DNA of 64,000 nucleotides, from positions 18,249 to 82,248 of the forward strand of contig JBBTSY010000007.1 of assembly GCA_038064515.1 (NCBI GenBank), given 5' to 3'. This DNA is from Patescibacteria group bacterium (lineage in GTDB: Bacteria > Patescibacteriota > Minisyncoccia > 2-02-FULL-40-12 > GWA2-44-9). The notes beneath the pieces are model-generated. The model was given only the letters and a program-made list of their open reading frames with translations. It ran no database searches and had not been told where the DNA came from. This document shows, piece by piece, positions 10,897 to 63,272 of this stretch. The translations under genes were made by a program, and so were the position numbers. Positions within the stretch are counted from its first letter, which is position 1; every line of letters starts with the position of its first letter.

Positions 10897-10956
10897 CTAT
10901 TTCCAGAGCGTTCAGAGTCCAGTACTTCGCATAGGCGCAGTACTCAACGCTAAAAG

Positions 10957-11457: not shown

Positions 11458-11473
11458 ATCTTAGAGAACCCGA

Positions 11474-11698: not shown

Positions 11699-11888
11699 AA
11701 AATAACCCAAGAACTCTACCATGAAAGTAAAATTTGCGCAATCTTTCACAGCTTTCAGAAAGTTGTCCACATTGTGTGAGATTTTTGATTATTTTAATGC
11801 GCGCGCCAAGGAACTGCGGGCCTTTCTCGCACTTATTTGGTCGAATGCGTTCAGACAGTGTAGAATGAGGTGTCACCATATTGAGCTC

Positions 11889-24571: not shown

Positions 24572-24608
24572 TACCCCTATTATAGCATTTACCCCTAACG
24601 ATTCAAAC

Positions 24609-26607: not shown

Positions 26608-26700
26608 ATTTAAATCATAACAAGATTACCCATAAAAAGCAGCCTCGTTTTTATAAGCTTATCCACATTCTACCTCGAAAGGCTCGGTTTGTCTGCCTTT

Positions 26701-26928
26701 TTACTTAATTAACTTTTCCAATTCATAAAGAACTCTGGCTATAATCTGCCTGACTCTTTCCGGACTGATATTAAACATCTTTCCACTTTCCTTGAGGGTA
26801 TGGGGCTTATCATCTATTCCATGACGAAATTCAAATATCCTTATATACCTGGGCTTGAGATTAAGACGATTTCTGACCTTTTTATACTGTTCGATCATTA
26901 AAAATTTTTCGAAAGCCCAAGTAATCAA
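26701..26928 (-). CDS. Small sigma-70 region-4-like HTH protein (75 aa)
   Basis: RYIRIFEFRHGIDDKPHTLKESGKMFNISPERVRQIIARVLYEL resembles the sigma70 region 4.2 HTH, which binds the -35 element. No region 2 or 3 is present. It is the last gene of the MoxR/VWA operon strand. Confidence 0.5.
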   Translation of the reverse strand: MITWAFEKFLMIEQYKKVRNRLNLKPRYIRIFEFRHGIDDKPHTLKESGKMFNISPERVRQIIARVLYELEKLIK

Positions 26929-27020
26929 TCAAGTACCAAGGCTCCAAGTTCCCAAGTCCCCGATGAAACTACCGAGCGGGGCAGACGCCGAGAGTGGAAT
27001 CCGAGTTGCCACGCGAATCG
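26897..27020. repeat. 124-bp direct repeat copy 1 (3' end of paralog A + 3'UTR CCAAG array); identical to 29589..29712
   Basis: Exact nucleotide identity by inspection. Similarity continues with a few mismatches for approximately 65 bp into the coding region. Confidence 0.85.
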
Positions 27021-27907: not shown

Positions 27908-27909
27908 AA

Positions 27910-29562: not shown

Positions 29563-29588
29563 AATTTATTTATTTTTTACGATTATTT

Positions 29589-29712
29589 ATTAAAAATTTT
29601 TCGAAAGCCCAAGTAATCAATCAAGTACCAAGGCTCCAAGTTCCCAAGTCCCCGATGAAACTACCGAGCGGGGCAGACGCCGAGAGTGGAATCCGAGTTG
29701 CCACGCGAATCG
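29589..29712. repeat. 124-bp direct repeat copy 2 (3' end of paralog B + 3'UTR)
   Basis: Identical to 26897..27020. Confidence 0.85.
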
Positions 29713-30740: not shown

Positions 30741-30907
30741 GGTGGTATTGACAAGTTGTATATATTTTGCTATAATGGCTATAGAAACTTTAACAAGTCG
30801 GGGAGGAGCGGTTAGCCACACCGTAACCTCCAAAAAGGAGATCCGGCCCACCTTGTCCTAGCCACGGACGAGGAGCCACCCAGCCTCTATTAAAAATAGG
30901 GACTTTT

Positions 30908-33067
30908 TTATTTGCTCTCCGACCTTTCAAATTTCTGCAACTGCTTCTCTAAAATTTTTAATAACGATTGGGGCAGTTTCTGAATATCTGGAACTGGCAG
31001 TCCATTTTTATCATAATACTGTTTTATGGTTCTTTCCATACCTGGTCCAATACCTATTCCAATCAAAGGAATCTGTTTCGTCCATTTTCTAACTATTTCA
31101 CGCAACTCCCATTCTGATCCCGCATGGCGCGAACTTGGCGCCGGCTGTCCGTCAGAAAATACAATTAAGGCACCCGAAGCATCATTCTCTAATAATCTTT
31201 TCTGGAGACGTCTTGCCGCGCTGTCTACTGCAAAGCCATCGTCATTATATTGGGCACCCGATGACTTTACTTCTTTAAGCACCCTCATAATCTCCAATTT
31301 CTTTTTGCCAAAGTAGTTCTCATCAAATCCCTTGAGCTCGAGGAGTTGGGCATGAAAAGCCAATATTTCAAAAGGTACCCCTTTTTGTGAAAATGCCTCG
31401 GCCATTAAAATAGCTGCCTTCAATGCTTCCTGAATTTTTTCTCCATCCATGCTTCCGCTTACATCAACTAGCAGAGAAAAGGCAACGGCTTTAACCTCCG
31501 GTACATCTTTACGCTCAAAAAATCTGCCTTCTTGAGTGGGAATTTCCCTGGCAAGCTTTCGCGGATCAATTCTTTTACCGCGCCTATACCCGCCCTCCCA
31601 TTCCGCTTCTTCTTGAGGAGGGAAGACCTCATCGAGACGCTCAACAAGCATGCCGACATATTTTTTAATCTGAGAGTAATAAGCGTCATAGCGCTCCCTC
31701 TCCTCTTTAGTGAGGCCCGTCATTCTTTCTTTAAGATTTTCCTGAGTTGCTTCTAAATTCTTTTGAACTTCGCTCTTCGCTTGCTGGATTTGCTCTTGGC
31801 GCTTCTTCTCTCTTTCCTGGTATTCTTTCTCTTCCTCCAATGCCTGCTCAATATCCTCCTGGGTCACCATCTGAACCTGAATCTCCATGGTACCATCTTC
31901 ATTTTCTTTCATTTCAACCGATTTCGGCTGAAGCTGTTTGGTAAACTCTCTTTCTTCCTCGTCAAGTTTTTCTCGAGCTTTCTGCCTATATTGGTCCTTC
32001 TCTTCATCAGAAAGTTCGTCCCAATTTTTTTGACCGCCTTCTTTCTGCTTGCCGGCCTCCTCTTGTTTTTCTTGAGGCTCGCCTTTTCCTTCCTGATCTT
32101 CCTGTTTCTCTTTTTGGCTTTGATCCTGCTCTCCCTCCTCTTCTTTAGATTCTTGTTTTTGCTGTTCCTGGCCTTGACCGCCTTGCTGCTGTTGCTTATC
32201 TTGGGCATGCTGTTTCTGAGCTTCTTCCTCAATGTATTTATCAATTAATTCTTTAAATACTGGCCAGCCCTTTTCCCACATAACTTCTTTAAATGCTCTT
32301 CTACCCTTTGATTCATTAAGATATTCATCAAGCACTCCTTCAGTCTCCCCAAAAGCCTTTAATACTTTCTCGTCCTTGATCTTTGATTTCATTTCTTCAA
32401 AATCAAAATCTTCTATGAACGGCTCTGCTCCTTTTGCCCAGCAAAGAAGGCCGTACTGAATAGGCAAAGATTTCTTTTCAAAGTCATGCAATAAAGCCTG
32501 GGCGATATCTTCTTTTAAATATGCTCCCAAGCGGTGACGTGCCGTTCTGGATGTCTGGCCTTCCTGATTATTCGATCTGCCATCTTCCCAAGCATCGTAA
32601 ATTGTAAAAAGGTCTAACGGTTTATAGCCTTCCTGCTTGGCCAATTCTTGAGATTCCAATAGAGACTGATAATCGGAATGTTTGATATGGCCCATCTCAT
32701 GACGAAAAACTCCAAAGATATAATCTTCACTTCTTTCCAACAAATCTTGCTCCGGATAAGTCATGACCTCAGGTACTAGCAGTTTTTCATCAAAATCTTC
32801 CAAGCTTTTTTCTGGATGTTTTCTCCTCTCCTCTTCAAATTTCTTTGAAAGTCCAGCAGCCCAGCCCTGACCAGGAATAAGATTCAAGTTAAAGTTCTTG
32901 GAAAGATTTTTAGTCACGAACCGCAACTTATCTTTTAGCTCCTGAATTTCGTGAGGGCTTCTTTTCCTCCCCGCCTCCGGCTTCTCTGACATAGGATGAA
33001 AAGCAGACTCTAATTCAGGTCTTTCGTGCTGAGACTTAGGTTGTGGCTCAAAAGACTCTTTGCTCAT
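30908..33067 (-). CDS. HExxH metallopeptidase-like N-domain + Gln/Glu/Lys-rich linker + C-terminal von Willebrand factor A domain protein (DUF2201-like MoxR partner)
   Basis: 719 aa. RHEMGH lies at residues approximately 122-127 (coordinates approximately 32687-32704). A long QQQGGQGQEQQKQESKEEEGEQ... low-complexity coiled-coil region follows. The VWA domain has the MIDAS motif DVSGSM plus downstream FSDG. This is the first gene of the operon. The architecture is the kind that is normally paired with MoxR AAA+ ATPases. Confidence 0.8.
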   Translation of the reverse strand: MSKESFEPQPKSQHERPELESAFHPMSEKPEAGRKRSPHEIQELKDKLRFVTKNLSKNFNLNLIPGQGWAAGLSKKFEEERRKHPEKSLEDFDEKLLVPEVMTYPEQDLLERSEDYIFGVFRHEMGHIKHSDYQSLLESQELAKQEGYKPLDLFTIYDAWEDGRSNNQEGQTSRTARHRLGAYLKEDIAQALLHDFEKKSLPIQYGLLCWAKGAEPFIEDFDFEEMKSKIKDEKVLKAFGETEGVLDEYLNESKGRRAFKEVMWEKGWPVFKELIDKYIEEEAQKQHAQDKQQQQGGQGQEQQKQESKEEEGEQDQSQKEKQEDQEGKGEPQEKQEEAGKQKEGGQKNWDELSDEEKDQYRQKAREKLDEEEREFTKQLQPKSVEMKENEDGTMEIQVQMVTQEDIEQALEEEKEYQEREKKRQEQIQQAKSEVQKNLEATQENLKERMTGLTKEERERYDAYYSQIKKYVGMLVERLDEVFPPQEEAEWEGGYRRGKRIDPRKLAREIPTQEGRFFERKDVPEVKAVAFSLLVDVSGSMDGEKIQEALKAAILMAEAFSQKGVPFEILAFHAQLLELKGFDENYFGKKKLEIMRVLKEVKSSGAQYNDDGFAVDSAARRLQKRLLENDASGALIVFSDGQPAPSSRHAGSEWELREIVRKWTKQIPLIGIGIGPGMERTIKQYYDKNGLPVPDIQKLPQSLLKILEKQLQKFERSESK

Positions 33068-33384
33068 TTAGGTATTGGGATTATATAAGTTCATTCTAAG
33101 TGTTAAGGGTATAAAAAGCAAACTTGCCTATCGGCTCATTTTCTGCAATAATGGTGGCGAGTCTTGTTAATAGAGATTAGGCTAAGGTTTAATCTTATGG
33201 GTCTCCTTTATTCATTCCTCACCAGAGTTCTTATGGCTACGGCTATAAGAAGTGGCGTGACCGGATATCGTAAGAGAGATGAAACTACGTGTTTTGTTTC
33301 AGTGTAGGTACTCCAGATTCGCATCGGGAGTTGCTACCAAGTAAAATTCAGGAGATGTTTCCTTTTTGAAACTATCCAGTGGCC

Positions 33385-48663: not shown

Positions 48664-49248
48664 CTACATGACCTCATACAGGAAGCGCAAGGAATTTAAG
48701 CGGAGGCTGAAAGTGTATTCATAGATAGTATCGAGTGGAGAGGGAAAGGTGGCCCCGCCATAACGGGGTCCCGCTGAGGCGGTGGCCACTGGGATTACCG
48801 GGAGTTGAGAGGCGTAACCAAGCACATTTAAGAAATCGGCTTGTTTTTCCCGAAAAAATGGCATCAGCGCTGATGCGTCCGCGGCATCCAGCTCAATTAA
48901 AAGCCTATATAAAAAGTTCCAGAGCTTTTCATCTTTCTGATTATCATAAGCGACGCGGTCGATAACTTCAAAGAAAAAATAGGCCACTGCCTGATGCGCC
49001 AATGATTTTCGAATGTGGCTGAAAGTATTCTCACTTTGAGCGCCGGTAATGATCGGCGTGGCGCGGCCATTTATTAAATCGAAATCGACAAGATTTAAAA
49101 CATCCAGATGCATCCCCTGAATCGAACTTTCTTTCAGAGAACTTTTAGCGATCGCAGTCAGTTTGCCCCACTCCTGGCTGTAGCAAGTAATAAGCTGGTC
49201 ATATTCCTTCGTCATCTGCTTTTTGATGATAATCGCTTTCGTTCTCAT
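48664..49248 (-). CDS. recO: DNA repair protein RecO-like (short form)
   Basis: 194 aa. The N-terminal OB-fold pattern (MRTKAIIIKK...EYDQLITCYSQEWGKLTAIAKSS) is consistent with RecO. The gene lies upstream of ileS. Confidence is moderate. Confidence 0.55.
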   Translation of the reverse strand: MRTKAIIIKKQMTKEYDQLITCYSQEWGKLTAIAKSSLKESSIQGMHLDVLNLVDFDLINGRATPIITGAQSENTFSHIRKSLAHQAVAYFFFEVIDRVAYDNQKDEKLWNFLYRLLIELDAADASALMPFFREKQADFLNVLGYASQLPVIPVATASAGPRYGGATFPSPLDTIYEYTFSLRLNSLRFLYEVM

Positions 49249-52200
49249 TTTTTAATGCCGATCCAGATTTTTTTACCGGGCGCGAGCTTGATTTCTTCTT
49301 CTACATCATATGCACGATCTGCTTTAGGCTGCCGTAATAATTCGGAAAGCACGGTATCCGTTTTGATTGCGACGGACCATTCGGTGATCGCATTTGAAAG
49401 AGCGGCATCTTCACTGTGCCAGTATGCCACGACTTCCTCATCAAAACGATAGCCGGCATCCTTGCGCATATCCTGGATCTGGCGCATCATCTCCCGCGCA
49501 TATCCTTCCGCGCGCAATTCGTCGGAGATTGCGAGATCAAAGCTCAACTTGGCTTCGGCAGGCAAGCCTGCTTTTTGATAGCGGATGTCTTTTACATTTA
49601 ACTCATCCTTAATCAATGCCTCGAGACCCGGATCAAGCGGATCGCTAGGAATAATCACCGCTTGGAGCGGCTGGCGCACTTTAAGCTGTTCGTTCTTGCG
49701 CAGGGCCAGCCCCTGTGTCACGAATTCCTGAATTCGGATCATCGCAGATTCCAATTCGCTGTTCACCATTTTCACATCGCCAATCGGCCAGCGTTGGAGG
49801 TGGACACTTTCTGTACCCTCGCTTTGTCCGCCAATACGCGCATAGATATCCTCGGCGGTATAGGGCGCAAACGGAGCGATCATTTTGGTCACCTCAAACA
49901 ACAAGTATCGCAACACACCGATCGCTTCTGGTCGGTTACGGGAACGGCGGAGCCACCATTTAGAGAGATCATCAATCACGAATTTCTCGATCATACGGGC
50001 GGCGGTTGTCGGATCGTACGCATCCATCCGTTTAGTAGCTTCTAAAATAGTTCGATTAAGCCGCGAAAGCATCCACTGATCGAGCACCGTCGGTTCCTGT
50101 TCCTGGCCCCGCCTTGGCGGGAGTTTTTCATAGAGTTCATAAAAGCGGACGCAGTTTTCAAGGGTAGTAAAAAAACCTTTGAGTCGTTCTTGCGCGTCTT
50201 TAAGAGTCACCACCGTGGATTCCCCTGGCATGTTGGCGGTATAGAAGTACCACCGCGTAGCATCAACGCCGACGGCATCCATGAATTCATCGGGAGCGAT
50301 GACGTTGCCTTTAGATTTGGACATTTTCTTTCCATGCTCATCGAGAGTATGACCAAGCGATATTACATTCCTGTAGGGAGCGCCCTTATTCAGGAGTGTC
50401 GAAATCGCCAATAAGGTATAGAACCAGCCGCGAGTTTGATCTACCGCTTCCACGATAAAGTCTGCCGGGAATTGCCTCTCGAATATTTCCTTATTTTCAA
50501 ACGGCCAGTGCCATTGGGCGTACGGCATACAGCCGGAATCAAACCAGACATCGATGAGATCGGGTACTTTATACATCGGTCCGTCGCATTTCGAGCACTT
50601 TAAAACAATTTCATCCACGTATGGCCGATGGAGATCAACGTCACCCTGGTCATTGTAAGGATAGTTTGGCAGGGTCGCTTTCATGTACGTCCCCTGCTTG
50701 AGATAGATTTCTGATTTTTTCGCGAGAGTGTCCGCGTCGTCTCGGTTCATCATTGCGCTGGCAAGAATCCAGAGCGGGTCACCGTGACTGATAATGAGGA
50801 TATTTTTGCCTTCGTATTTTTTATCCAGTTCCACTACAACCGCCATCATGCGGGCTTTAACATCGCGCCAACTGTCACCATCTCCGCGCCTGGCATCCAT
50901 TGCCACGATAGTGCCTAGTTGCTCGACACATTGAGCATGTGTTTTTCCCTCACACGCCAATCCGTGCTTTATTTCGCCTAGCCGCTCATCAGTTTCTACA
51001 GGAATACCCAGAACTTCAGAGATAATCTTTGCCGTACCTTGGGTACGCTTGAAAGGTGACACAATGATAATGCCGATTTTTTCTTTTTTTAATTTATCAG
51101 CCATATCCGCTATCTGCTTCCGCCCTTCGTCGTTAAGTTCATAAATATCATATTCACCGGTATACGAATTGATAATCATATTCTTCTCGACGCTTCCGCG
51201 ATCGGTAAGCCCATGACGCGCCAAAATAAATTCATTTGGCTTCTTAAAGCGATTTTTTTTCAAATCATCGAGACTCCCCGCAACGCGATATGTTTCACAA
51301 TCGGCATTGGCGCATTGCCATACCGGCAGGGGCGTCCCCCAGTATCGTTCGCGAGAGAATGCCCAATCTTTGCCTTCTTTGATCCACTGTCCAAAGCGGC
51401 CCTCCTTTAAATGGCTCGGAATCCAGTTAATCTGATCGTTGTTTTTTAAAAGCTGCTTATTCACCGCTGACATTTTGATAAACCAGGATGTCTTGGCATA
51501 ATAGATCAGCGCAGTGTCACAGCGCCAACAGAATGGATAATCGTGCTCATACTCCTCCTCTTTGAAGAGCGTGCCGGTGGCTTTCAGTTTCGCAAGAATT
51601 ACTTCCGTAGTCTTGGCGGTTTTTACATACATGCCGTCCAGATCAGAGCTTACGCCGATAAATTTGCCCTGCAGATCTACCGTGTGCACTTTTGGTAAAC
51701 CAAGCTCCGTGCCCAGAGCATAATCATCTTCACCGTACATCACCGCGGTATGCACGACGCCGGTACCGTCCGTAGTAGAAACAAACGGCGCGGCATAAAT
51801 ATGGTAGGACTTCTCTGATTTCAGTTGCGATACATCAAAGAGAGGTTCGTATTCAAGTCCCACAAGATCATTGCCGTCTATAAAACCCAATTCTGCCCCA
51901 TCAAATTGCGGGAAAACTTTTAACAACAAATCTTTCGCTAAAATATAAGTTTCTTCGCTATCTTTTGGTTTTATCTTTACGTACCTGATATCCTTCCCTA
52001 CGGCCAAGGCGACATTTCCCGGAAGCGTCCAAGGAGTGGTGGTCCACGCAAGTATAAAGGTGTTCTCCGAAAACTTGTCATTCTTGGTGAGTTTAAATTT
52101 TAGGTAAACGGAATTCTCCTTGACCAGCTTGTACCCTTGGGCCACTTCATGCGATGAAAGTCCGGTCCCGCAACGCGTGCAAAAAGGCACCACGCGATGC

Positions 52201-52709
52201 GCTTGATACAAGAGATCTTTATCCCAGATGGTTTTTATAATATTCCAAACGGATTCAATATATGACGTCTCATACGTTACATACGGATCGTGGAGATCAA
52301 GCCAGAATCCCATGCGTTTGGTCATCTGTTCCCACAGGCCCTTATATTTTTTAGCATTCTCTTTCGCCTTCTGGTTGAATTTTGCTATGCCGTATTCTTC
52401 GATCTGCTTCTTATTTTTAAAACCAAGTTCTTTTTCGATCTCGATTTCTATCGGCAAGCCATGCGTATCCCAACCCGCCCTTCGCAAAACGCTATAGCCG
52501 CGCATCGTTTTGTAGCGCCCATAGAGATCTTTAAATACACGTGTCAAGAAGTGTCCGATATGCGGTAGTCCATTAGCCGTCGGGGGGCCTTCAAAGAAAA
52601 CAAAATGTTCCTCTTTGCTTCGAAGTTCCAGGCTTTTTTCAAAAATCTGCTCCGATTCCCAAAAATGCCGGATTCGCTCTTCAGTTTTCTTAAAATCAAA
52701 AACAGCCAT
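49245..52709 (-). CDS. ileS: Isoleucyl-tRNA synthetase carrying an approximately 190-aa inserted histidine-phosphatase (phosphoglycerate-mutase-like) domain
   Basis: 1154 aa. HIGH appears as PHIGHFLT and KMSKS as KMSKSKGN. CP1 editing-domain motifs are present. An insertion at residues approximately 490-680 (coordinates approximately 50670-51245) contains ILARHGLTDRG...IIIVSPFKRTQGTA...LIISHGDPL, matching the RHG/SHG catalytic motifs of the histidine phosphatase superfamily. Confidence 0.95.
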   Translation of the reverse strand: MAVFDFKKTEERIRHFWESEQIFEKSLELRSKEEHFVFFEGPPTANGLPHIGHFLTRVFKDLYGRYKTMRGYSVLRRAGWDTHGLPIEIEIEKELGFKNKKQIEEYGIAKFNQKAKENAKKYKGLWEQMTKRMGFWLDLHDPYVTYETSYIESVWNIIKTIWDKDLLYQAHRVVPFCTRCGTGLSSHEVAQGYKLVKENSVYLKFKLTKNDKFSENTFILAWTTTPWTLPGNVALAVGKDIRYVKIKPKDSEETYILAKDLLLKVFPQFDGAELGFIDGNDLVGLEYEPLFDVSQLKSEKSYHIYAAPFVSTTDGTGVVHTAVMYGEDDYALGTELGLPKVHTVDLQGKFIGVSSDLDGMYVKTAKTTEVILAKLKATGTLFKEEEYEHDYPFCWRCDTALIYYAKTSWFIKMSAVNKQLLKNNDQINWIPSHLKEGRFGQWIKEGKDWAFSRERYWGTPLPVWQCANADCETYRVAGSLDDLKKNRFKKPNEFILARHGLTDRGSVEKNMIINSYTGEYDIYELNDEGRKQIADMADKLKKEKIGIIIVSPFKRTQGTAKIISEVLGIPVETDERLGEIKHGLACEGKTHAQCVEQLGTIVAMDARRGDGDSWRDVKARMMAVVVELDKKYEGKNILIISHGDPLWILASAMMNRDDADTLAKKSEIYLKQGTYMKATLPNYPYNDQGDVDLHRPYVDEIVLKCSKCDGPMYKVPDLIDVWFDSGCMPYAQWHWPFENKEIFERQFPADFIVEAVDQTRGWFYTLLAISTLLNKGAPYRNVISLGHTLDEHGKKMSKSKGNVIAPDEFMDAVGVDATRWYFYTANMPGESTVVTLKDAQERLKGFFTTLENCVRFYELYEKLPPRRGQEQEPTVLDQWMLSRLNRTILEATKRMDAYDPTTAARMIEKFVIDDLSKWWLRRSRNRPEAIGVLRYLLFEVTKMIAPFAPYTAEDIYARIGGQSEGTESVHLQRWPIGDVKMVNSELESAMIRIQEFVTQGLALRKNEQLKVRQPLQAVIIPSDPLDPGLEALIKDELNVKDIRYQKAGLPAEAKLSFDLAISDELRAEGYAREMMRQIQDMRKDAGYRFDEEVVAYWHSEDAALSNAITEWSVAIKTDTVLSELLRQPKADRAYDVEEEIKLAPGKKIWIGIKK

Positions 52710-52806: not shown

Positions 52807-53214
52807 ATGAAAATTGTTTTTCCAATCCTGGCTGGCTGTATTGTCCTGTTTGTTGGCATTTATGTTTCCGGCCAGATGGCATTTTATGAAGACTTCCCGT
52901 ACTTTGATAGCGTCATGCATGTTCTTGGCGGGGCTGTGATTGGCTGGCTTGTGTTTGCTCATGCTTCCGTTAAAGGACGCCCCACTCCCTCGCTAGGCCT
53001 TGTGCTCCTTATCGCAATCGTCATTGGACTCCTCTGGGAACTGGCCGAGTATACCTCCGGACTGACAATGCAGGGAACCGTCGTCTACAAATACTTCCAC
53101 GGCGGCGGACGCCTCGATTCCCTCTCCGATCTGGCGATGGCCGTCCTGGGCGCCACAATCGCCTTCATCCTCCACCCGAAGAAACTAGATTCGTTCAAGG
53201 GTCTTGATGCCTAG
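52807..53214 (+). CDS. Small integral membrane protein (about 4 TM helices)
   Basis: 135 aa. Hydrophobic segments ILAGCIVLFVGIY, HVLGGAVIGWLVF, LGLVLLIAIVIGLLW and MAVLGATIAFIL. It is the first gene of an AT-rich islet. Confidence 0.45.
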   Translation: MKIVFPILAGCIVLFVGIYVSGQMAFYEDFPYFDSVMHVLGGAVIGWLVFAHASVKGRPTPSLGLVLLIAIVIGLLWELAEYTSGLTMQGTVVYKYFHGGGRLDSLSDLAMAVLGATIAFILHPKKLDSFKGLDA

Positions 53215-53286
53215 GAGCCCCAGTCCATTCCTCAAAACGCCTATCACCGCTTCGATAAGGAGAAGTTAAAATATTCAAATAGCAAA

Positions 53287-55226
53287 ATGTTTACAAAACT
53301 AGATAAAAACGAGAAGGAGGTGTGGGATTGGGGTCTTGGGAAAGATTTTTCACCCAAGCTTTTAACTAATAAATTATTTGACTCAAGACGATCCTCTATA
53401 GAAAGGTTTATCGGGTCTTTCTTGAGAGAAAACATTGGGGAAATAATTAATCATTGTACTTGGTACGCTCGCGACGACTGGATAACGAAAAATCAAAGCT
53501 TTTCTAAACAATATTCACATAAATGGAAAAAAGAAGAGACTAAAGAAATAGTAGAGATATCTTTAGGTAATGATAAATTACTCATTTTGCCCGTATGCGG
53601 GTTTCCTCTTGAGAGATTTTACTTAACAACCCTGCCCTTATTGAGAGAACAAGACAAAATATCTGAATTGTCGAATCTATCAGAAATTTTCTCTCTTTTT
53701 TATAATAAACAAGGAAGTGAACAAGGAGATTGGGAATCCATGAGAGGGGACTTATTAAATAGTAACGCGAACCTCTTTCTTGCTTTTCTTTTAAGGGAAG
53801 AATATATGGGTAGGCTAAGAGAAAACTTGTCTCAGAAAATTTATTCAGAATTCCATAATAAAGATGAAATGTTGGTGTTCTTTGAGCAATGGTGCGTAAA
53901 TGGTCATTTTCTACATCCAACTCCAAAATCAAAAACAGGTATTCTGCTTAAAGACCTCCTGAAGCTACTACCAGAAGCACATGTAACGTATAAACTTTAT
54001 CTTATTGCATTAAAAAAAGATAAGGCACATTTCTTGTCGATCAGCGGTAGTTTCGATTCATTTTTTGTAAGATTATCGAATTCGCTTCATGAAAAAGTGA
54101 GGAAATATATTAAAAATATTAAAATATTAATGCTAATTTTGAAGATTATTACTTCATCCCAATCCACCCATGGCAATACGAGAATTTTCTTAAAAAAAGA
54201 TTAGCAACAGAACTTGATAGTAATGATTATATCTTTTTGGAAGGAATCGGCGTGAAGGTACAACCACTTATCGCTTTTCGAACTGTATATGTTCCGGAGA
54301 TGAGTGTTTATTTTAAGCTTCCGATAGATGTTCAAATAACAAGTGTTAAAAGAACACTCTCTTCGAAGCCGTGTCATAACGGTATCGCTCTATCTAAAGT
54401 TTTTGATATTCTCAAGAGAAAAGAATGCCTCCCTAATTCATTTGAAATACAATTAGAAATTGCTAGTGTCAGATTGAAAGAAGACTATCCTTCACATAAG
54501 AATTTAAGTTTTGTTACCAGGGAAGGCAGTATCGCAAATCTAACCGAAGAAGATTTAATTCTCCCAGCATCTGCTCTTTTTGAGAAATCACCGAACCTTC
54601 GTCGAGGGAAAATTCTTGAAGAATTGATTTCTGCTTATTCTTTGACTACTGTACAAAAAGCCGGAGGTAAAAAAGTAGTTTTAGAATTTTTTAATAATTA
54701 CATCAAAATTTTATTGCCTCCAGCACTAGATTTATTAACTAAATATGGTATTGGAATAGAAGCACACCTACAAAATTCTATAGTTGTTTTTAGGAACGGA
54801 GTCCCCCATAGATTGATTTATAGAGATTTGGATGCAGTAAATATTTGTACCAAGAGATTTAGTAAGCATTCATTCCTAAGAAATGAATTCTATCCTAACT
54901 CGTGGACAGTATCTGAAGACGCGCAAGCCGCGCAAGACAAGGTGATGCATTCGCTAATACATTCACATATCGCAGAGATGATTAATCAAATAAACTTGAT
55001 TTATGATTTGAATTTTGAGATATTATGGCGATCAGTTGCAGGGCTAATCCGCAACCATTTGGATAACCTCTCCAAAGATTCTTTATTCAGTAATGAGGCA
55101 AAAAAAGATATTGAATATTTTTTTTGTGAATTCACTTATATAAAGTCGCTTTTTCGAATGAAGTTACTCGGAAAAACTAATGAGTATATCCATATTAAAA
55201 CCAAAAATCCTTTATATTTAATATAA
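53287..55226 (+). pseudogene. IucA/IucC-family (NRPS-independent siderophore-type) amide synthetase, split by a frameshift near 54105-54130
   Basis: ORF 53287..54204 is the N-terminal part. The next reading frame opens at 54123 and reads ...YYFIPIHPWQYENFLKK..., the hallmark IucA/IucC HPWQ motif. It continues into ORF 54237..55226, which has GIGIEAHLQNSIVVFRNGVPHRLIYRDLDAVNI, the IucA/IucC EAH.QN...R..YRD core. The frame switch lies in an AATATTAAAAATATTAAAATATTAA repeat. Confidence 0.7.
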
Positions 55227-55229
55227 AAT

Positions 55230-55817
55230 ATGACCATCGTTGCTTCAACAATACTGATAACAGAGTACGGCAGATTTAATGTCAGCTACCATAAAACAAA
55301 AAATGGTGAAGGTCTGTCAATTAAAAAGGGTAAGTTAAACACAACCAATCCCCTCTTAAGGATACAGTCCTCATGTATTTTTAGTGAATCTTTTCACTCC
55401 ACAACTTGTGACTGTTCACTTCAGCTTCAAGGGTCATTAAAAATCATCAATGAATTTGGAAACGGTGCTTTGGTCTATCTTTTTGATGAAGGACGCGGTG
55501 CCGGTCTGCTTACAAAGATAAAAGCAATGGAGATCGAAAGACAGAATGAAATTGATACTGTCGAAGCATTTAAAAAACTGGGATTACCAGCAGACTTGAG
55601 AAATTATAAAATTGCCCTGGATATCTTGGAAGATATTGAAATAAACAAAGAACTCAAATTGATCACGAATAATCCAAACAAAAAGAAAAGTCTAGAAGAG
55701 AATGGATATAAAGTTACTGAAATCGTTAGATTGAATTTAGAACTAAATGATTCGGTAAGAAAATATCTAAAAATGAAAAAAGAAAAGCTCGGGCATGAAT
55801 ATATAGATTTAGAATAG
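55230..55817 (+). CDS. GTP cyclohydrolase II (RibA)-like protein with apparent Tyr105-to-Met substitution
   Basis: 195 aa. The zinc-ligand Cys pattern SSC...TTCDCS parallels RibA C54/C65/C67. GALVYLFDEGRGAGLL, DTVEAF, ADLRNY (Arg128 equivalent) and LITNNPNKK all align to RibA. The position equivalent to Tyr105 (KIKAMEIERQ) is Met. Confidence 0.75.
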   Translation: MTIVASTILITEYGRFNVSYHKTKNGEGLSIKKGKLNTTNPLLRIQSSCIFSESFHSTTCDCSLQLQGSLKIINEFGNGALVYLFDEGRGAGLLTKIKAMEIERQNEIDTVEAFKKLGLPADLRNYKIALDILEDIEINKELKLITNNPNKKKSLEENGYKVTEIVRLNLELNDSVRKYLKMKKEKLGHEYIDLE

Positions 55818-55819
55818 CC

Positions 55820-56644
55820 ATGCATGGTCAAACAGAGTTGGAAAAAACAATAGAGTCAACTTATAGGAATCTTGCCGAGAAGCATTTTAAGGATCTTTAT
55901 ATCTTCTGTTACCAAACAGGAAGTTTTGTGTATGGCGGCGGAACTCCCGGTAAAAGCGATTTGGACGTAACCGTTGTTTTTAAAGATTCAGTTTATAATT
56001 TACCCCCTAGGGAGCTCCTCAATCGTATTGAAGACTTTATTGTCGGTTATCTTAAACTACATGAGCAAACTGGGTATAATCCCGATATCACCTTTCCCGG
56101 AGAGTATGTGACGGAAGCGATGTTTATTGATGCTATAGCAGGTAGGGGGTTTCATGTTGAGAACGGAAGGTTATTTCTACCAAAAGCTTCAAGAGAATAT
56201 TATCTAGAAGATTCTGAGCGAGGATTTAGAGCATGGTTAAGTCAATCAGCCTTTAATAAATTTCTTGCGGGTGATAGGAACACTTATAAAGATAAAAAAA
56301 TAAAAGGTTGGTGCACAATTCTTAAATTTATATTAAAAGATATCGAATCTCAGGCAATAAATGTCTCCGATATTCTAGGACGACTTAGGATATTTGGGGT
56401 ACACGATGATTACTGGAATTTCGGTAATATGGAGAGTTTGTGGATTATAAAAAGTTTAGAAAAACTTTCCGAAGATGGTTTTGTGATCAAGAGTGAGGGT
56501 TATTTTTCCCCACAGCCAATCAAATTACATGAATGGGAATCTGAAGTTGCATACGCAATAACAACAGGACTGATAAAAAAGAGTAGCATCCTCGTAGGGG
56601 CAGAAGAAACTGTGTTATTATCAAAGTATGCCAATGAGAATTAG
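55820..56644 (+). CDS. Pol-beta superfamily nucleotidyltransferase (MNT/ANT-like)
   Basis: 274 aa. The motif YGGGTPGKSDLDVTVVF is the G[GS]-x9-13-DxD NTase signature. The start is 3 nt after the RibA-like stop. Confidence 0.7.
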   Translation: MHGQTELEKTIESTYRNLAEKHFKDLYIFCYQTGSFVYGGGTPGKSDLDVTVVFKDSVYNLPPRELLNRIEDFIVGYLKLHEQTGYNPDITFPGEYVTEAMFIDAIAGRGFHVENGRLFLPKASREYYLEDSERGFRAWLSQSAFNKFLAGDRNTYKDKKIKGWCTILKFILKDIESQAINVSDILGRLRIFGVHDDYWNFGNMESLWIIKSLEKLSEDGFVIKSEGYFSPQPIKLHEWESEVAYAITTGLIKKSSILVGAEETVLLSKYANEN

Positions 56645-56673
56645 ATAAACAAGGAATCGGGTTTTAGAAAACT

Positions 56674-58356
56674 ATGAAATCAATCATTGATACGTTATAC
56701 AGTGCAATAGATGTGGTACTTACTGACATGGACGTCACAGACATTAAGTACTCGATAGAGTACCCGGAGGAATTGCTTTATGGAGATTACTCAACAAATG
56801 TAGCAATGGTGGCTGCGAAAGCGGTCGTAATGAATCCAAAGGAACTAGCAAGAAAAATTGTCGAAAGGCTTGGTTTTATTAATAGTATTTCGAAAATAGA
56901 AATTGCTGGGTCCGGATTCATCAATTTTCATCTTTCACGTGAATATTTTGCCGAAACCGTAAAAAAAATTGATGATAACTGGGGAAGAGGGTCTATTCTT
57001 TCCGGAAAAAAAATTCTTATTGAGAAAAGTGCACCAAATTTATTTAAACCGTTTCATGTTGGGCACCTCCTTAACATTTCTATCGGCGAATCACTCGCGC
57101 GGATTTTGTATTTTTCGGGTGCGGATGTTATCCCCGTTGCATATCCTTCAGATATTTCACTCGGCGTTGCTAAGACAATTTGGGCAATTTTAAAAAAACA
57201 CACACAAGGCAAACTCACAATTAATATTCTCGGTGAATGTTACATTTACGGCACTAGGATGTACGACGAAGATGAAAATATAAAGCAGGAAATAATCGAA
57301 ATTAATAAAAAGCTCAATACGAAAGAATCGGGTGTTGTATGGGACACGTATAAGGAAGGGAGAGAACTCAATTTACAGTATTTTAAAAAAATTACCGCGC
57401 GCCTTAAGTCAGAATTTGCAGATTATTTTTTTGAAAGTGATTCTGGTGTGGTAGGAAAGAAAATTGTTCAAGCAAACATAGGAAAAGTTTTTGAAGAGTC
57501 CAATGGCGCAATTATTTTTAAAGGTGAAAAGTATGGACTTCATACACGTGTATTCGTGACATCCTTAGGACTTCCTGTGTATGAGGCAAAAGATATAGGT
57601 TTATTAAAGCTAAAGTTCGAGAAATACAACCCAGATGTTTCGGTGGTAATCACTGATGTTGAACAGAAACAATATTTTGAAGTCATTAAAAAAGCGGCAA
57701 TGTTGATTCATGAAGAGTGGGGTACGCGATCAATTTACTGGCAACACGGACGTTTACGTTTTAAGGGAGAAAAAATTTCTTCACGATATGGTAATGTTCC
57801 TTTAGTTGAAGATTTACTTGAACAGGTAAAGGGAGTCGTGCGCGAGAAAATGAATGTTGTTAAGCGGAAGGTACAAATTAGCAACAATGATATTTTGATT
57901 GAAAAGATCGCGCTTGCCGCACTTCGCTACTCATTTTTACAGGGTGGATCTGGTAAAAATATTATATTTGATTTCAAACAATCTGTATCGCTGGAGGGGA
58001 ACTCGGGAATATATTTACAGTATTCATATGTTCGCGCACAAAGCGTGCTTGAAAAAGTGAGCGATGACTCTATCACGATACACGATACAATGTTGATCCC
58101 CAAAGAAATCCCAGTATTTGAAAGACTCTTACCGCGATTTCCCGCAACAGTAGAACGTGCATCAAAAGAGTATGAGCCACACTATGTGACAACGTATCTT
58201 ACTGAGCTTGCATCAACATTTAACAGTTGGTACGCAAATGAGCGCATAATTGGCTCTGAATATGAATCATATAAGCGTGCACTCACAAAAGCATTTGCAA
58301 CAACAATGAAAAATGGTTTGTGGCTCTTGGGTATTGATGCGCCAGAGAGGATGTAA
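56674..58356 (+). CDS. argS: Arginyl-tRNA synthetase, compositionally AT-rich relative to other aaRS genes in the window
   Basis: 560 aa. HIGH appears as KPFHVGHLLN. An N-terminal Arg_tRNA_synt_N-like domain and a C-terminal DALR-type anticodon-binding domain are present. Confidence 0.85.
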   Translation: MKSIIDTLYSAIDVVLTDMDVTDIKYSIEYPEELLYGDYSTNVAMVAAKAVVMNPKELARKIVERLGFINSISKIEIAGSGFINFHLSREYFAETVKKIDDNWGRGSILSGKKILIEKSAPNLFKPFHVGHLLNISIGESLARILYFSGADVIPVAYPSDISLGVAKTIWAILKKHTQGKLTINILGECYIYGTRMYDEDENIKQEIIEINKKLNTKESGVVWDTYKEGRELNLQYFKKITARLKSEFADYFFESDSGVVGKKIVQANIGKVFEESNGAIIFKGEKYGLHTRVFVTSLGLPVYEAKDIGLLKLKFEKYNPDVSVVITDVEQKQYFEVIKKAAMLIHEEWGTRSIYWQHGRLRFKGEKISSRYGNVPLVEDLLEQVKGVVREKMNVVKRKVQISNNDILIEKIALAALRYSFLQGGSGKNIIFDFKQSVSLEGNSGIYLQYSYVRAQSVLEKVSDDSITIHDTMLIPKEIPVFERLLPRFPATVERASKEYEPHYVTTYLTELASTFNSWYANERIIGSEYESYKRALTKAFATTMKNGLWLLGIDAPERM

Positions 58357-58357
58357 T

Positions 58358-59566
58358 TTATCTCGTATTTGGTCTTTTTGTCCATTCGTATATCTCGTGA
58401 GATATAAGGATGGGTCGATAATGGAATTTATTCTCCCCATCGGTTTGACAGAAGGAAAAATTTGCTTTATGACCATGCCCACCATAAGCATCGTTTCCTC
58501 TTTCTATATCTAAAATATTTTTATTTTCCAGGATTATGGAATTTGGTATGGTGTAATTTATTTTCCCAAATACCGATACATACATGGCGCGCTCTTTGTA
58601 TTCTTTAGTATGGAAATACTTTCTTAGATCATCATGGGTTTTAAAAATAGATATATAAAAAATTGGGCTAAACCATTCTGTGTAGTTTTTCTCTTTTAGC
58701 AGATTAGAGACTATTACTGTTGGATATACTATCGCTTTACTAAAATCAATGATACCGCCGTACCGTATCTGATCAGAATTTTTGATAAGCATTGCACTTA
58801 TTTCTAGAATATTTTCTTTATGAATAATTTTACCAACCCTGACCGAATGCTTAGTATATTGACCAACTTCTAATATAGTCAGCTTAGCTATAAGCAAATC
58901 TGAAAATTTCTTTGATATTGAAGAGTGAACAAATATAACATCGGGACCAGCACAATCCTGCCCGCTGTTAAAAATTCTTGATTGAATTGTTTTCTCTACT
59001 GCGAGATCGAGATCAGCATTTTGAGTTACTACTACAGGATTTATACCAGCACCATTGTATATAAAGAGTGAGTATGGTTTGCACTGTTCCAAAACTTGCA
59101 TCGCGTTATTATAAGTTCCGGTGAAGATGACCACATCTGAGCTAGAGATATAGTCTTTTAAAAAAGTTTTCCGTTCTGAATGGGAAAACTCTATTTTTGG
59201 GAAAAGAGTTTTGAAATCCAGAATCACAATAATATCATCTAAAATATCTCTTGCGAGCAGGGGCGGGCGTAAATAGATATTTAACGATTGAAAACTAGGT
59301 ATTACGGCAAAAAGTACTAAAGAATACAGGGGTAAATTTATTGGCAAAAAAACACTTATGCTATTTACACATACCGTTTCTAAATATTTTTTTTCTTTCC
59401 GAATATTCAGAAGGCAATCCAGTGACCGCTCGATTTCATTGTTTACTGTTTCAAAACTTTCATAATTCAGAAGGCAGTTTACGAGTTTTTCCTTATTCTT
59501 AAGAATCCTTACTACCAACTCTCGTGAAATGATGGATGTTTGATCTATAGAATAATTCGCATTCAT
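58358..59566 (-). CDS. Aldehyde-dehydrogenase-superfamily protein (possibly LuxC-type acyl reductase)
   Basis: 402 aa. FNSGQDCAGPDVIFVH resembles the ALDH catalytic-Cys motif F.N.GQ.C.A. The canonical ELGGK motif was not recognised, so the family assignment is tentative. Confidence 0.45.
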   Translation of the reverse strand: MNANYSIDQTSIISRELVVRILKNKEKLVNCLLNYESFETVNNEIERSLDCLLNIRKEKKYLETVCVNSISVFLPINLPLYSLVLFAVIPSFQSLNIYLRPPLLARDILDDIIVILDFKTLFPKIEFSHSERKTFLKDYISSSDVVIFTGTYNNAMQVLEQCKPYSLFIYNGAGINPVVVTQNADLDLAVEKTIQSRIFNSGQDCAGPDVIFVHSSISKKFSDLLIAKLTILEVGQYTKHSVRVGKIIHKENILEISAMLIKNSDQIRYGGIIDFSKAIVYPTVIVSNLLKEKNYTEWFSPIFYISIFKTHDDLRKYFHTKEYKERAMYVSVFGKINYTIPNSIILENKNILDIERGNDAYGGHGHKANFSFCQTDGENKFHYRPILISHEIYEWTKRPNTR

Positions 59567-59734
59567 CCAGTAATTATGAATATATTTTAAAGATTATATC
59601 AATTTTTTTCTAGGTTCGCTCTGAATCATGTAATTATTGTAGCATCCCGTTAAAAAAAAGTCGCTGGCCTCAAAAGCGGACTTCTGTCACCTGATTGAAA
59701 AAATTCTTCAAAAGCCTCATACTGAAGAGGTACT

Positions 59735-60796
59735 ATGTTATATTCTCCATCATCAAAAATGAACAGTCACGATCACGATAAAGTTATTATTAATACCGTC
59801 AAGAAGGTTGCTCCTTCGGTCGTCAGCATAGTTATATCAAAATATATGCCGCAAATTAGAGATGTAAGCTCAACTTCCTTCTTTAATCCATTTGTGTTTG
59901 ATATTGCCGATGATGGAGCAAAGCAAAAAGTAAAAGTGGGCGGCGGCTCCGGATTTATCGTACATCCCGATGGCCTTATCCTCACCAACAAGCACGTCGT
60001 CTCCGAAGAAGATGCGGAATATATGGTCATTACCAATGACCATAAAGAATTACCGGCCAAGGTCCTTTCGCGTGATCCTATCAATGACATCGCTATGCTC
60101 AAGGTAGAAGCAGTCGGCCTGCCGGCGCTTGAACTTGGCGATTCAACCCAGCTGGAACTGGGCCAAACCGTCATCGCCATCGGCAATGCCCTTGGCATGT
60201 TCAGCAATAGCGTATCAAAAGGCATCGTATCCGGCCTCGCTCGCACGATTTCCGCCTCTTTGAGCAACGGCGGCCACATGGAAAATCTCCGCGGCGTTAT
60301 CCAGACCGATGTCGCTATCAATCAAGGCAACTCGGGTGGCCCGCTTCTTAACTTAGACGGCCAAGCCATTGCAATCAATACAGCCGTTATCTTCGGCGCC
60401 CAGAACATCGGTTTCTCTATTCCTATCAATCTTGCCAAGAGCGACATTAACGATATTCTTAAACACGGCCGGATCATCAAACCATACATCGGCCTCATGT
60501 ATACGATGCTCTCGAAAGAGGCGCAAGAAAAATATAATCTCCCCGTCGACCACGGCGCATTAGTTATGCGCGACCACCTGCCTGATTCCAAAGCCGTCAT
60601 TGATAAATCCCCCGCCGCTAAGGCCGGCGTGAAAGAAAATGACATCATCACGGCCATAAACGGCAAAGAGCTTGCAGGAGATGCAGACTTTTCCGATTTG
60701 CTTCAGGCCTGCAAAGTCGGTGACGAGATAGAGCTCAATATTCTTCGTAAGGATACCCCCCATAAACTCAAGCTTACCCTCGAAGAACGAACATAG
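59735..60796 (+). CDS. htrA: HtrA/DegP-family serine protease with C-terminal PDZ domain
   Basis: 353 aa. The catalytic triad context is HVV...D...GNSGGPLLN. A PDZ region (ITAINGKELAG...) follows. Confidence 0.9.
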   Translation: MLYSPSSKMNSHDHDKVIINTVKKVAPSVVSIVISKYMPQIRDVSSTSFFNPFVFDIADDGAKQKVKVGGGSGFIVHPDGLILTNKHVVSEEDAEYMVITNDHKELPAKVLSRDPINDIAMLKVEAVGLPALELGDSTQLELGQTVIAIGNALGMFSNSVSKGIVSGLARTISASLSNGGHMENLRGVIQTDVAINQGNSGGPLLNLDGQAIAINTAVIFGAQNIGFSIPINLAKSDINDILKHGRIIKPYIGLMYTMLSKEAQEKYNLPVDHGALVMRDHLPDSKAVIDKSPAAKAGVKENDIITAINGKELAGDADFSDLLQACKVGDEIELNILRKDTPHKLKLTLEERT

Positions 60797-60797: not shown

Positions 60798-61361
60798 ATG
60801 GATCTCACTCTCTTTTGGTATTTCAACGGGTGGGCGGGACACGGCGCCCTCTGGGACAGTGTTATTGTATTTATTGCGTCGGACTTGCAATATGTGCTGG
60901 GTGCACTGCTCGTTGTGCTCGTTTTCTGGCCGATACGCCCCGCCTCGCCGAAGACGATGAGTCGAGGCGGGCACATCCGCATGTTCGGAGCGGCGTTCGC
61001 CGCCGCCATCTTTGCGCGATTAGTGGTCAAACCACTCATTCTGCTGTTTGTGCACCGTGCCCGCCCATTCATCACGCTCGACGGCGTTCGCAACCTTATC
61101 GGAACCGACCCGGGCGAAAACCTTCAATCTTTTCCATCGGGCCATGCTATTTTCTTCTTTGCGCTGGCCACAGCGGTATATCGATACGATAAACGATGGG
61201 GATGCATATTTTTCGCGGGAGCACTTCTCATGGGCGCCGCCCGCATCATCGGCGGTGTCCACTGGCCAAGTGATATCCTGGGCGGCGCACTTATCGGTAT
61301 GCTCATCGGCTGGTTAATGATACAGTTCATCCCACCGTTTCCTCGTGCTTCGTCTTCGTAA
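60798..61361 (+). CDS. PAP2-family phosphatase (undecaprenyl-diphosphatase BcrC-like), membrane protein
   Basis: 187 aa. The PAP2 motifs are FPSGH and ARIIGGVHWPSDILGG. Confidence 0.8.
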   Translation: MDLTLFWYFNGWAGHGALWDSVIVFIASDLQYVLGALLVVLVFWPIRPASPKTMSRGGHIRMFGAAFAAAIFARLVVKPLILLFVHRARPFITLDGVRNLIGTDPGENLQSFPSGHAIFFFALATAVYRYDKRWGCIFFAGALLMGAARIIGGVHWPSDILGGALIGMLIGWLMIQFIPPFPRASSS

Positions 61362-62825: not shown

Positions 62826-63179
62826 GGGGATGATCGGTATCGACGTTGTTATTCCATCCCTCTGATGCCGTGCGTGAATGATCGTTACCACGTAAATCTT
62901 CGGTCAAACATAATAACTGGCAACACTTCCAGTAATTACGCTTTCGCCTAACCTAGTTAGGTAAGCCATTCCTCCCAGATGTTCGATATGGGATTAAGGA
63001 GTGTCATTATCGAGCTTTAGCAGGACGGATGTTCTCCCCTCGTCTGCTGAAAATCTGGAGAACTAGTGCGAGATTATTTTGTCGGTTTCCTACTCTCGCG
63101 TGAAACACCAAATCGGCTATCACGGTAGTACATCATTGGTTTGCAACAGCGGACGCGAGTTCGATTCTCGCCATCTCCA
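62826..63179 (+). ncRNA. ssrA: tmRNA (SsrA), standard one-piece form; CCA not encoded
   Basis: The 5' end GGGGATGATCGGTATCGACG parallels the E. coli 5' end GGGGCUGAUUCUGGAUUCGACG. The 3' end GGACGCGAGTTCGATTCTCGCCATCTCCA parallels E. coli GGACGCGGGUUCAACUCCCGCCAGCUCCA. The acceptor GGGGATG/CATCTCC has a G3:U70 pair. The candidate tag ORF GGC AAC ACT TCC AGT AAT TAC GCT TTC GCC TAA (62919-62951) gives (A)GNTSSNYAFA with a second in-frame TAG. Confidence 0.8.
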
Positions 63180-63272
63180 CATCGTTAGTATTTTCAGTTG
63201 CAAGCTCCTCAAAAAGCCTCGGGGCATGCAGCACTTCGCTAGAAGTAAAACAGTGATATAATTTAGTAACAT

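Follow-up and report, generated by a model that had tools for sequence, protein, structure and literature searches.

A low-GC island with a very probably foreign arginyl-tRNA synthetase gene and a recurrent synthetase-linked gene module in a Patescibacteria genome

Aminoacyl-tRNA synthetase genes are found inside some specialised-metabolite clusters, where they act as self-resistance copies (albomycin, agrocin 84, mupirocin) or as a supplier of aminoacyl-tRNA (valanimycin and further tRNA-dependent pathways). Here, we analyse a stretch of 64,000 nucleotides from a Patescibacteria group bacterium (contig JBBTSY010000007.1, positions 18,249 to 82,248, hereafter the window), in which a low-GC island carries a full-length arginyl-tRNA synthetase gene (argS) together with genes for an IucA/IucC-FhuF-type synthetase, a GTP-cyclohydrolase-II-like (GCHII-like) protein, a Pol-beta nucleotidyltransferase (NTase) and an aldehyde-dehydrogenase (ALDH)/LuxC-like protein. 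As in the clusters mentioned above, a full synthetase gene is packed inside a mobile small-molecule gene set, and this set recurs elsewhere with a synthetase of the matching amino-acid class. However, none of the known clusters combines an ALDH-like protein, a Pol-beta NTase, a GCHII-like protein and an IucA/IucC protein. Moreover, the copy in the window appears to replace the host gene rather than adding to it, relatives of the cassette fuse the synthetase to a pathway enzyme, and the hosts are minimal-genome Patescibacteria, which to our knowledge are thought, like the DPANN archaea, to have almost no specialised metabolism. In full-text literature searches neither the module nor its fusions were found described, and a 2026 paper on genome mining with tRNA deacylases concerns a different system. 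The sequence comparisons then suggest that the module is a kind of synthetase-linked specialised-metabolite cluster that is apparently undescribed.

Regarding the chemistry, the closest described logic would be that of HemA, the glutamyl-tRNA reductase (GluTR), and of LuxC/LuxE, with which the pathway proposed here would share the passage of an activated acyl or aminoacyl group to a cysteine thioester and the NAD(P)H-dependent formation of an aldehyde from it. However, the ALDH-like protein is not homologous to GluTR, and it matches the LuxC Pfam model only marginally (23 bits), with the cysteine kept and the glutamate of the hydrolytic enzymes lost. We know of no reductase of Lys-tRNA or Arg-tRNA. 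Also, the IucA/IucC protein shares with the synthetases of NRPS-independent siderophore (NIS) pathways, such as FslA, the architecture of an IucA_IucC domain followed by a FhuF-like C-terminal domain and a length of about 645 aa, but it scores far below the cut-offs of the named families and is frameshifted in the window, and many versions of the module do without it. The transport and tailoring genes of NIS loci are also lacking from the module.

The island and its arginyl-tRNA synthetase

Gene content was assigned with Pfam and NCBIfam profiles. Between 53 and 60 kb of the window the GC content is 0.33-0.40, against about 0.45-0.52 on either side, and the third-position GC (GC3) of the six open reading frames (ORFs) of the island is 0.28-0.34, below that of every other ORF of at least 150 aa (n = 43, mean 0.49, minimum 0.349; Mann-Whitney U = 0, p = 7e-8). 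This bears out the AT-rich islet noticed in an earlier sequence-only reading of the window. The island with its bordering intergenic DNA extends over 53215..59734 (no strand assigned) and fills the ancestral argS slot, from htrA to DUF2238/ileS. Its coding part, 53,287-59,566 (6.3 kb), is densely packed, with intergenic gaps of 3, 2, 29 and 1 nt, the last two lying between the NTase gene and argS and between argS and the ALDH-like gene, respectively. Two host genes anchor the synteny of the flanks. One is ileS (49245..52709, reverse strand), which carries an inserted His_Phos_1 domain and is 51-59% identical to IleRS of the Yanofskybacteria type, and the other is htrA (59735..60796, forward strand), which is 57-71% identical in relatives and there adjoins the native argS. 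Between ileS and the island lies a gene for a DUF2238-like membrane protein (52807..53214, forward strand), which the earlier reading had counted in the block. In this case the assignment is not supported, as the gene has a GC of 0.527 and a host-like GC3 of 0.596 and the relatives L013 and L017 (loci compared here are numbered with L) carry homologues between argS and ileS. By this composition and position it is a host gene, which places the start of the island at about 53,215-53,287.

The ArgRS of the island (56674..58356, forward strand, GC3 0.337) is a full-length enzyme of the Kaiserbacteria type, with its three Pfam domains in place (PF03485, PF00750 and PF05746) and a TIGR00456 score of 307.8 bits, above the equivalog cut-off of 261.65. 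Its best matches are Patescibacteria proteins with 58-66% identity, whose named sources are Kaiserbacteria, Paceibacterota or "Patescibacteria group". The highest of these values, 66%, is reached with L004, L005 and L006, and in L004 and L006 a block of the order argS-ileS-recO-x-glyS resembles the flank of the window. Nonetheless, a comparison of the other proteins of that block with those of the window gives only 38% identity for IleRS, 50% for GlyRS and 26% for RecO.

On the other hand, a scan of the GTDB species representatives with the window IleRS, from which 80 loci (L013-L092) were retrieved, identified the true host relatives as Candidatus Yanofskybacteria and allies, whose IleRS is 51-59% identical to that of the window. 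At least 14 of them share the gene order smpB(-) htrA(-) argS(+) [DUF2238(-)] ileS(+) recO p583 glyS, and the proteins compared with the window in these genomes are similar throughout (HtrA 57-71%, SmpB 51-68%, IleRS 51-59%, GlyRS up to 71%) except for ArgRS, which occupies the same slot and is only 25-30% identical. The slot between htrA and DUF2238/ileS thus holds only a native-type argS in the relatives and the island in the window, where argS runs in the orientation opposite to that of the native gene. No cassette gene was found in the 80 loci of the relatives, and no further argS of either type is present within the 64 kb of the window.

The argument for xenology is made by pairwise identities with syntenic controls. 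The island argS is very probably foreign to the host, because its product reaches 66% identity with the ArgRS of a lineage in which IleRS shares only 38%, against 25-30% with the ArgRS of the host relatives, and because it has the composition of the island. A single, vertically inherited argS, which the sequence-only reading had named as an outcome that would speak against a cluster, is not what these comparisons indicate; at the syntenic slot the window does not carry the type of its own lineage. Horizontal acquisition of the island, the xenology of its argS and the recurrence of the module in other genomes are, on these data, very probable. The foreign gene has very probably displaced the native argS in situ, the latter being gone from its ancestral slot, and since that slot is empty in the 64-kb window, the island ArgRS is most likely the working ArgRS of the cell. 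This also fits the earlier proposal that argS was kept because it is needed.

Also, in the argS slot upstream of ileS, the ArgRS of L013-L092 are 23-39% identical to the window enzyme, and the ArgRS of locus L104 is 35-37% identical to two ArgRS of the Yanofskybacteria type. The diversity of ArgRS in this slot suggests a recurrent xenologous displacement of argS across Patescibacteria.

Regarding the mode of transfer, no att-like direct repeats were found flanking the island and no integrase lies inside it, and promoter- and terminator-like sites occur at chance level only. An Rfam scan of the island gave no T-box and no other family, and that of the whole window gave two tRNAs and one tmRNA. 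A phage origin of the cassette was considered and rejected, as no viral contig scanned with the NTase profile carries the gene, and so was a known defence system, since no PADLOC model matched any of 8 cassette proteins scanned. Plasmids of PLSDB gave no match for the NTase, and for the ALDH-LysRS fusion described below the matches were confined to lysS genes of the ordinary kind and to distant ALDH-like genes; one of the latter, 28% identical, lies in a region of Streptomyces that resembles a biosynthetic gene cluster, and lends weak support only.

The module in other genomes and its proteins

The genes of the island recur together in unrelated genomes, usually linked to a lysyl- or arginyl-tRNA synthetase. 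In L007 and L008, a class II LysS is followed by a convergent ALDH-like gene, an IucA/IucC gene split at a different place from that of the window, a GCHII-like gene and an NTase gene. In L009 and L012, overlapping genes encode NTase, a class I LysRS-like (LysK-like) protein and an ALDH/LuxC-like protein in this order, accompanied by guanylate-kinase-like, MBL and short-chain dehydrogenase/reductase (SDR) proteins, aminotransferases and a methyltransferase; the LysK-like protein does not reach the equivalog cut-off for LysRS, and the match is confined to its catalytic half. The block of L009 is again a low-GC island, with GC3 of 0.25-0.33 against 0.53-0.57 in its host. Locus L010, from an organism of 60% GC, carries an intact IucA/IucC gene (648 aa), GCHII-like, NTase, ALDH-like and TauD genes between a tyrosine integrase on one side and a serine recombinase on the other, with no synthetase at the locus, and L093/L094 and L011 carry ALDH-like, intact IucA/IucC, GCHII-like and NTase genes and then a bona fide LysS. 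In L104 and L105, a small Pol-beta NTase gene overlaps an ALDH-like gene that is convergent with argS. This geometry matches that of the window; the ALDH-like protein is 49% identical, whereas the ArgRS is of a different type, with 26% identity. Finally, a minimal version is found in Photorhabdus asymbiotica (8286-12396 of locus L102; about 861,160-865,270 of FM162591.1), where a class I LysRS-like gene, an ALDH/LuxC-like gene and a major facilitator superfamily (MFS) transporter gene stand next to a TetR regulator; this gammaproteobacterium is cultivable and would offer a convenient start for experiments. The ALDH-like gene of L103 (6509-10286) is preceded by an overlapping gene for an APH-like kinase and is convergent with an LPG_synthase_TM gene of the MprF type, a family that uses Lys-tRNA, with no synthetase nearby.

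Moreover, the components are fused in several ways. A single protein of L096 and L099 joins the ALDH-like part to a complete class I LysRS; the LysRS half matches TIGR00467 with 293 bits (cut-off 147.55) over profile positions 2-501 of 515, and the next gene encodes an NTase + GCHII-like fusion, followed by an MFS transporter, which often follows the module elsewhere. Many proteins of 600-620 aa from Patescibacteria and Nanoarchaeia (P0132-P0144) join the ALDH-like part to the class I LysRS C-terminal domain only, a piece corresponding to residues 448-517 of 1IRX (E = 9e-9); some of these are wrongly labelled "lysyl-tRNA synthetase class 1" at JGI. Further fusions link ALDH-like with NTase, and GNAT with ALDH-like and NTase, and other fusion partners of the NTase are an aminotransferase, a PLP decarboxylase and a methyltransferase.

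A Lys or Arg synthetase is thus adjacent or fused in 7 of the 9 arrangement types, the linked synthetases fall into three families that are unrelated or have diverged deeply, and the ArgRS of the window sits in the NTase-aaRS-ALDH slot that the LysK-like protein holds in L009 and L012. For these three reasons a chance adjacency is unlikely, and the recurrent adjacency together with the fusions argues that the synthetase is a functional component rather than a bystander. That it would supply the substrate of the module is probable, with some reserve. Scattered neighbours in relatives, the other outcome named beforehand as contrary to a cluster, are not observed either, the IucA/IucC, GCHII-like, NTase and ALDH-like genes recurring together.

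The IucA/IucC-FhuF-type gene (53287..55226, forward strand) is read as two forward ORFs, one for the N-terminal part of IucA_IucC (53287-54204) and one for its C-terminal part and the FhuF domain (54237-55226), with 43.7 and 59 bits for PF04183 and 88.7 bits for PF06276; the best named NCBIfam match is rhizoferrin FslA-like, with 115 bits against a cut-off of 1000. The frame is lost within 54118..54139 (forward strand), a short way upstream of the conserved HPWQ motif, which is encoded in the other frame. Adding one nucleotide at any position between 54120 and at least 54139, the limit of the range tried, restores an ORF of 647 aa, collinear with intact homologues of 644 and 648 aa in L093 and L010, respectively. 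The frameshift noted in the sequence-only reading is hence confirmed as a single 1-nt lesion, and the intact homologue that it advised looking for in relatives exists in L010 and L093/L094. Its suggestion of a decaying cluster holds for this gene, which has one lesion, and not for the other five ORFs, all of which are intact. Programmed frameshifting was rejected, as no slippery heptamer is visible and the gene of L007 is independently broken elsewhere, at aa ~433-442. Given the frameshift, the window organism would have at most a truncated pathway. No siderophore context, that is, uptake or receptor genes, hydroxylase or acyltransferase, was found in the island, L007, L010 or L093.

The next gene (55230..55817, forward strand) encodes the GCHII-like protein, with 133 bits for PF00925. 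It scores below the RibA equivalog model TIGR00505 (151.3 against a cut-off of 205.85), whereas it passes the looser subfamily model NF001591 (157.5 against 148). In an alignment to 2bz0, the Zn ligands (C54, C65 and C67) and Arg128 are kept, and Met100 takes the place of the catalytic Tyr105 of Escherichia coli RibA, which makes precise the active-site change that had been noticed from the sequence. Met stands here in each of the 7 free-standing cassette homologues and His in each of the 4 fused to the NTase, with Tyr in none, while the Zn ligands and Arg128 are conserved across all the cassette proteins compared. A decay of RibA was rejected, and the protein is rather a specialised paralogue, because the Met or His is family-wide and the other catalytic residues are kept. 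In this regard, a RibA paralogue of Streptomyces coelicolor with Met for the catalytic Tyr reportedly halts at the formamidopyrimidine nucleotide. The free-standing cassette proteins share with it the PF00925 fold, the Zn ligands, Arg128 and the same Tyr to Met change. In contrast with RibA, the cassette proteins have no riboflavin-operon context and are in some relatives fused to the NTase, and their substrate may be a guanylylated intermediate instead of GTP.

The two-domain NTase of the Pol-beta superfamily (55820..56644, forward strand) gives only a generic match to PF01909 (NTP_transf_2) at the sequence level. Its family is rare, with 10 clusters in a word-indexed search and 187 representatives in an exhaustive profile search, and has the invariant motif G-S...GKSDxD. 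A comparison of its AlphaFold model (pLDDT 90) by Foldseek gives as best and only significant neighbours the spectinomycin/streptomycin O-adenylyltransferases AAD(9) and AadA (E = 1e-4, probability 0.98), which likewise consist of a Pol-beta NTase domain and a helical domain. However, the likeness is weak (TM ~0.3, 12-15% identity), and the window NTase has no resistance context and belongs to a separate family with invariant motifs of its own.

The last gene of the island (58358..59566, reverse strand), convergent with argS, encodes the ALDH/LuxC-like protein, which matches PF00171 (Aldedh) and PF05893. Its family comprises at least 359 clusters, including fusions to LysRS and to the NTase. 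The catalytic cysteine (GQDC; C204), the oxyanion asparagine (N76) and the FTG dinucleotide motif are invariant in the family alignment. In hydrolytic ALDH enzymes, a general-base glutamate activates the deacylating water. A HMMER alignment to 3qan pairs ivEMGGK with iiNGaGh and GQKCSA with GqdCsa, so that this glutamate (motif E-x-G-G-K) is replaced, by Asn in the window, L007, L093 and L099 and by Ser in L010. With the cysteine kept and the glutamate lost, the enzyme should therefore form a thioacyl-enzyme without hydrolysis, which suits a reductase or a transferase.

Proposed pathway and alternatives

ArgRS and class I LysRS form the aminoacyl-adenylate only with tRNA bound (PMC7916415), so their output would effectively be aminoacyl-tRNA. 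Lys-tRNA, and in the window Arg-tRNA, is proposed as the substrate of the ALDH-like enzyme because of the fusions to LysRS or its C-terminal domain and of the active site with Cys and without Glu. In the pathway envisaged, the synthetase would make Lys-tRNA or Arg-tRNA, the cysteine of the ALDH-like enzyme would take the aminoacyl group as a thioester, and reduction by NAD(P)H would give an alpha-amino aldehyde. Accessory SDRs and aminotransferases would turn the aldehyde into an amino alcohol or an amine, methyltransferases would also modify it, and the NTase would then nucleotidylate the alcohol or amine, possibly with GTP. The GCHII-like enzyme would open the guanine ring, the IucA/IucC enzyme, where intact, would add a carboxylate handle, and the MFS transporter would export a Lys- or Arg-derived nucleotide conjugate. 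Such an aminoalkyl-nucleotide-like product would be near the aminoacyl-nucleotide type guessed in the earlier reading. An acquired cassette with a synthetase-linked module and a tRNA-dependent pathway is, as a whole, the explanation that we hold to be reasonably probable. The specific chemistry, with a reductase and an aminoalkyl-nucleotide, is proposed only tentatively from the sequence data, and that the ALDH-like proteins of the module would be a new class of aminoacyl-tRNA reductase, leading from Lys- or Arg-tRNA through alpha-amino aldehydes to adenylate-mimic metabolites, is a speculative extension, less likely than not, although the chance that this chemistry is new is considerable.

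The embedded synthetase could also be a self-resistance gene, the product of the cassette being an inhibitor of ArgRS or LysRS, for example an aminoalkyl-nucleotide adenylate mimic, and the synthetase an insensitive copy. A native, sensitive argS would then be dispensable or harmful, and hence lost, which is compatible with a supplier role. This would agree with the foreign argS sharing the composition of the cassette while the native gene is gone from the slot, with the extra class I LysRS-like copies that accompany the module in L009, L012 and Photorhabdus, a member of an order in which class II LysRS is the usual form, with the MFS exporters of several module versions and with the adenylate mimic that an NTase would yield from an amino-acid-derived alcohol. 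However, a resistance gene does not as a rule form a fusion with an enzyme of the pathway, whereas the ALDH-like protein is joined to a complete LysRS, and many genomes fuse the C-terminal domain of LysRS alone, which is unable to confer target resistance. Moreover, the LysS of L093/L094 has the composition of its host, the LysK-like proteins of L009 and L012 fall short of the LysRS cut-off and match in the catalytic half only, and no inhibitor is known. Self-resistance seems unlikely on balance; of the two roles that the sequence-only reading had offered for the synthetase, the supply of aminoacyl-tRNA is favoured by the ALDH-LysRS fusions, complete or C-terminal, and by the host-type LysS of L093, whereas the self-resistance copy is not supported. 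A coincidence, in which a xenologous replacement of argS, an event common among the synthetases of Patescibacteria, and a separate insertion of an unrelated cassette would have no functional link, would explain why the ArgRS is bona fide and full length, why its closest relatives stand in an argS-ileS synteny free of the cassette, why several deeply different ArgRS types, suggesting frequent displacement, occupy this slot in Patescibacteria, and why L010 and L103 have no synthetase. Nonetheless, argS shares the extreme GC3 of the cassette and is packed, with gaps of 29 and 1 nt, in the slot of the LysK-like gene of L009 and L012, LysS follows the NTase gene in L093, a second, unrelated ArgRS is convergent with the ALDH-like gene in L104/L105, and Lys or Arg synthetases accompany most arrangement types (7 of 9), so we regard a coincidence as improbable.

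Pathways of other kinds have still less in their favour. Known NIS siderophores, aerobactin among them, are built from lysine derivatives, and the IucA_IucC and FhuF domains with rhizoferrin FslA as the best named match could indicate a degraded NIS locus, in which the IucA/IucC-FhuF protein makes a lysine- or arginine-derived carboxylate siderophore and the rest is tailoring. However, the IucA/IucC gene is absent from L009, L012, L096-L099, L104 and Photorhabdus and broken in the window and L007/L008, the FslA match stays far under its cut-off (115 bits against 1000), the island has no hydroxylase, acetyltransferase, receptor or uptake genes, and the core linkage is that of ALDH-like, NTase and synthetase genes; this origin is accordingly very improbable. 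Pol-beta NTases also include tRNA-modifying toxins, and an NTase acting on tRNA or on the synthetase instead of a small molecule, in the manner of MenT- and MNT-type enzymes, would make the cassette a translation-directed toxin or defence system. The cassette of L010 does lie in a mobile region with TIR, Fic, integrase and recombinase genes, and synthetases, as well as the C-terminal domain of a tRNA synthetase, are partners of the module. In this case, though, PADLOC gave no match and no viral contig holds the NTase, the partners of the NTase are small-molecule enzymes (aminotransferase, PLP decarboxylase, methyltransferase, GCHII-like, ALDH-like) with an MFS transporter following, and its closest fold neighbours are small-molecule adenylyltransferases, which leaves the toxin or defence role as the least probable of all, with hardly any weight.

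Several observations also weigh against the acquired, synthetase-linked and tRNA-dependent module preferred here. The ArgRS of the window resembles an ordinary housekeeping enzyme, above the equivalog cut-off, and its nearest relatives are found in plain argS-ileS synteny and free of the cassette. No synthetase neighbours the module in L010 and L103, and the LysS of L093/L094 has a host-like GC3 of 0.55 against 0.27-0.39 in the cassette, which may mean that the cassette landed beside, or recruited, a host LysS. With the IucA/IucC gene broken in the window and L007/L008, the full pathway may be inactive in the host. The fold match of the NTase is weak (TM ~0.3), and sequence is the basis on which we propose what the product is, in which direction the ALDH-like enzyme works and which nucleotide and acceptor the NTase uses.

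If the proposed pathway is correct, a tRNA-dependent route to compounds resembling inhibitors of aminoacyl-tRNA synthetases would be spread widely among Patescibacteria and DPANN archaea, with Photorhabdus as a further carrier, and a new genome-mining route for tRNA-dependent metabolites would be opened. Should the ALDH-like enzyme reduce aminoacyl-tRNA, glutamyl-tRNA reductase would cease to be the only example of such chemistry. The three-gene version of Photorhabdus asymbiotica makes the hypothesis directly testable. Moreover, a recurrent small-molecule pathway in Patescibacteria and DPANN would bear on the interaction of episymbionts with their hosts. The in situ swap of an essential translation gene for a foreign copy inside an accessory cassette would be a clean natural example, and would illustrate a way in which mobile islands become fixed, the cell coming to depend on the argS of the island.

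Other features of the window

The His_Phos_1 domain that is inserted midway along IleRS is phosphoglycerate-mutase-like, and distant relatives within the Paceibacteria share the insertion, the corresponding genes being those of L004 (11974-15429) and L006 (12307-15747). A second block of lower GC, with a strongly negative GC skew, lies at ~24,600-33,100 of the window and contains genes for a tyrosine integrase (24609-25649), a truncated C5 DNA methylase (25594-26193), an AAA_5 ATPase (27910-29562) and a VWA/CobT_C protein (30908-33067); it looks like a further island of mobile or defence type. A low-GC pair at 4983-6720 encodes a restriction endonuclease of the MvaI/BcnI family (4983-5780) and a ClpP/SDH-like serine protease (5785-6720). 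Also, a PAP2 phosphatase gene (60798-61361, GC3 0.62) stands between htrA and smpB and has no counterpart in the 80 loci of the relatives, where htrA and smpB are close to each other and in many cases adjacent; this gene may be another insertion. About 1 kb downstream of smpB, the tmRNA (62826-63182, tag GNTSSNYAFA) is an ordinary feature.

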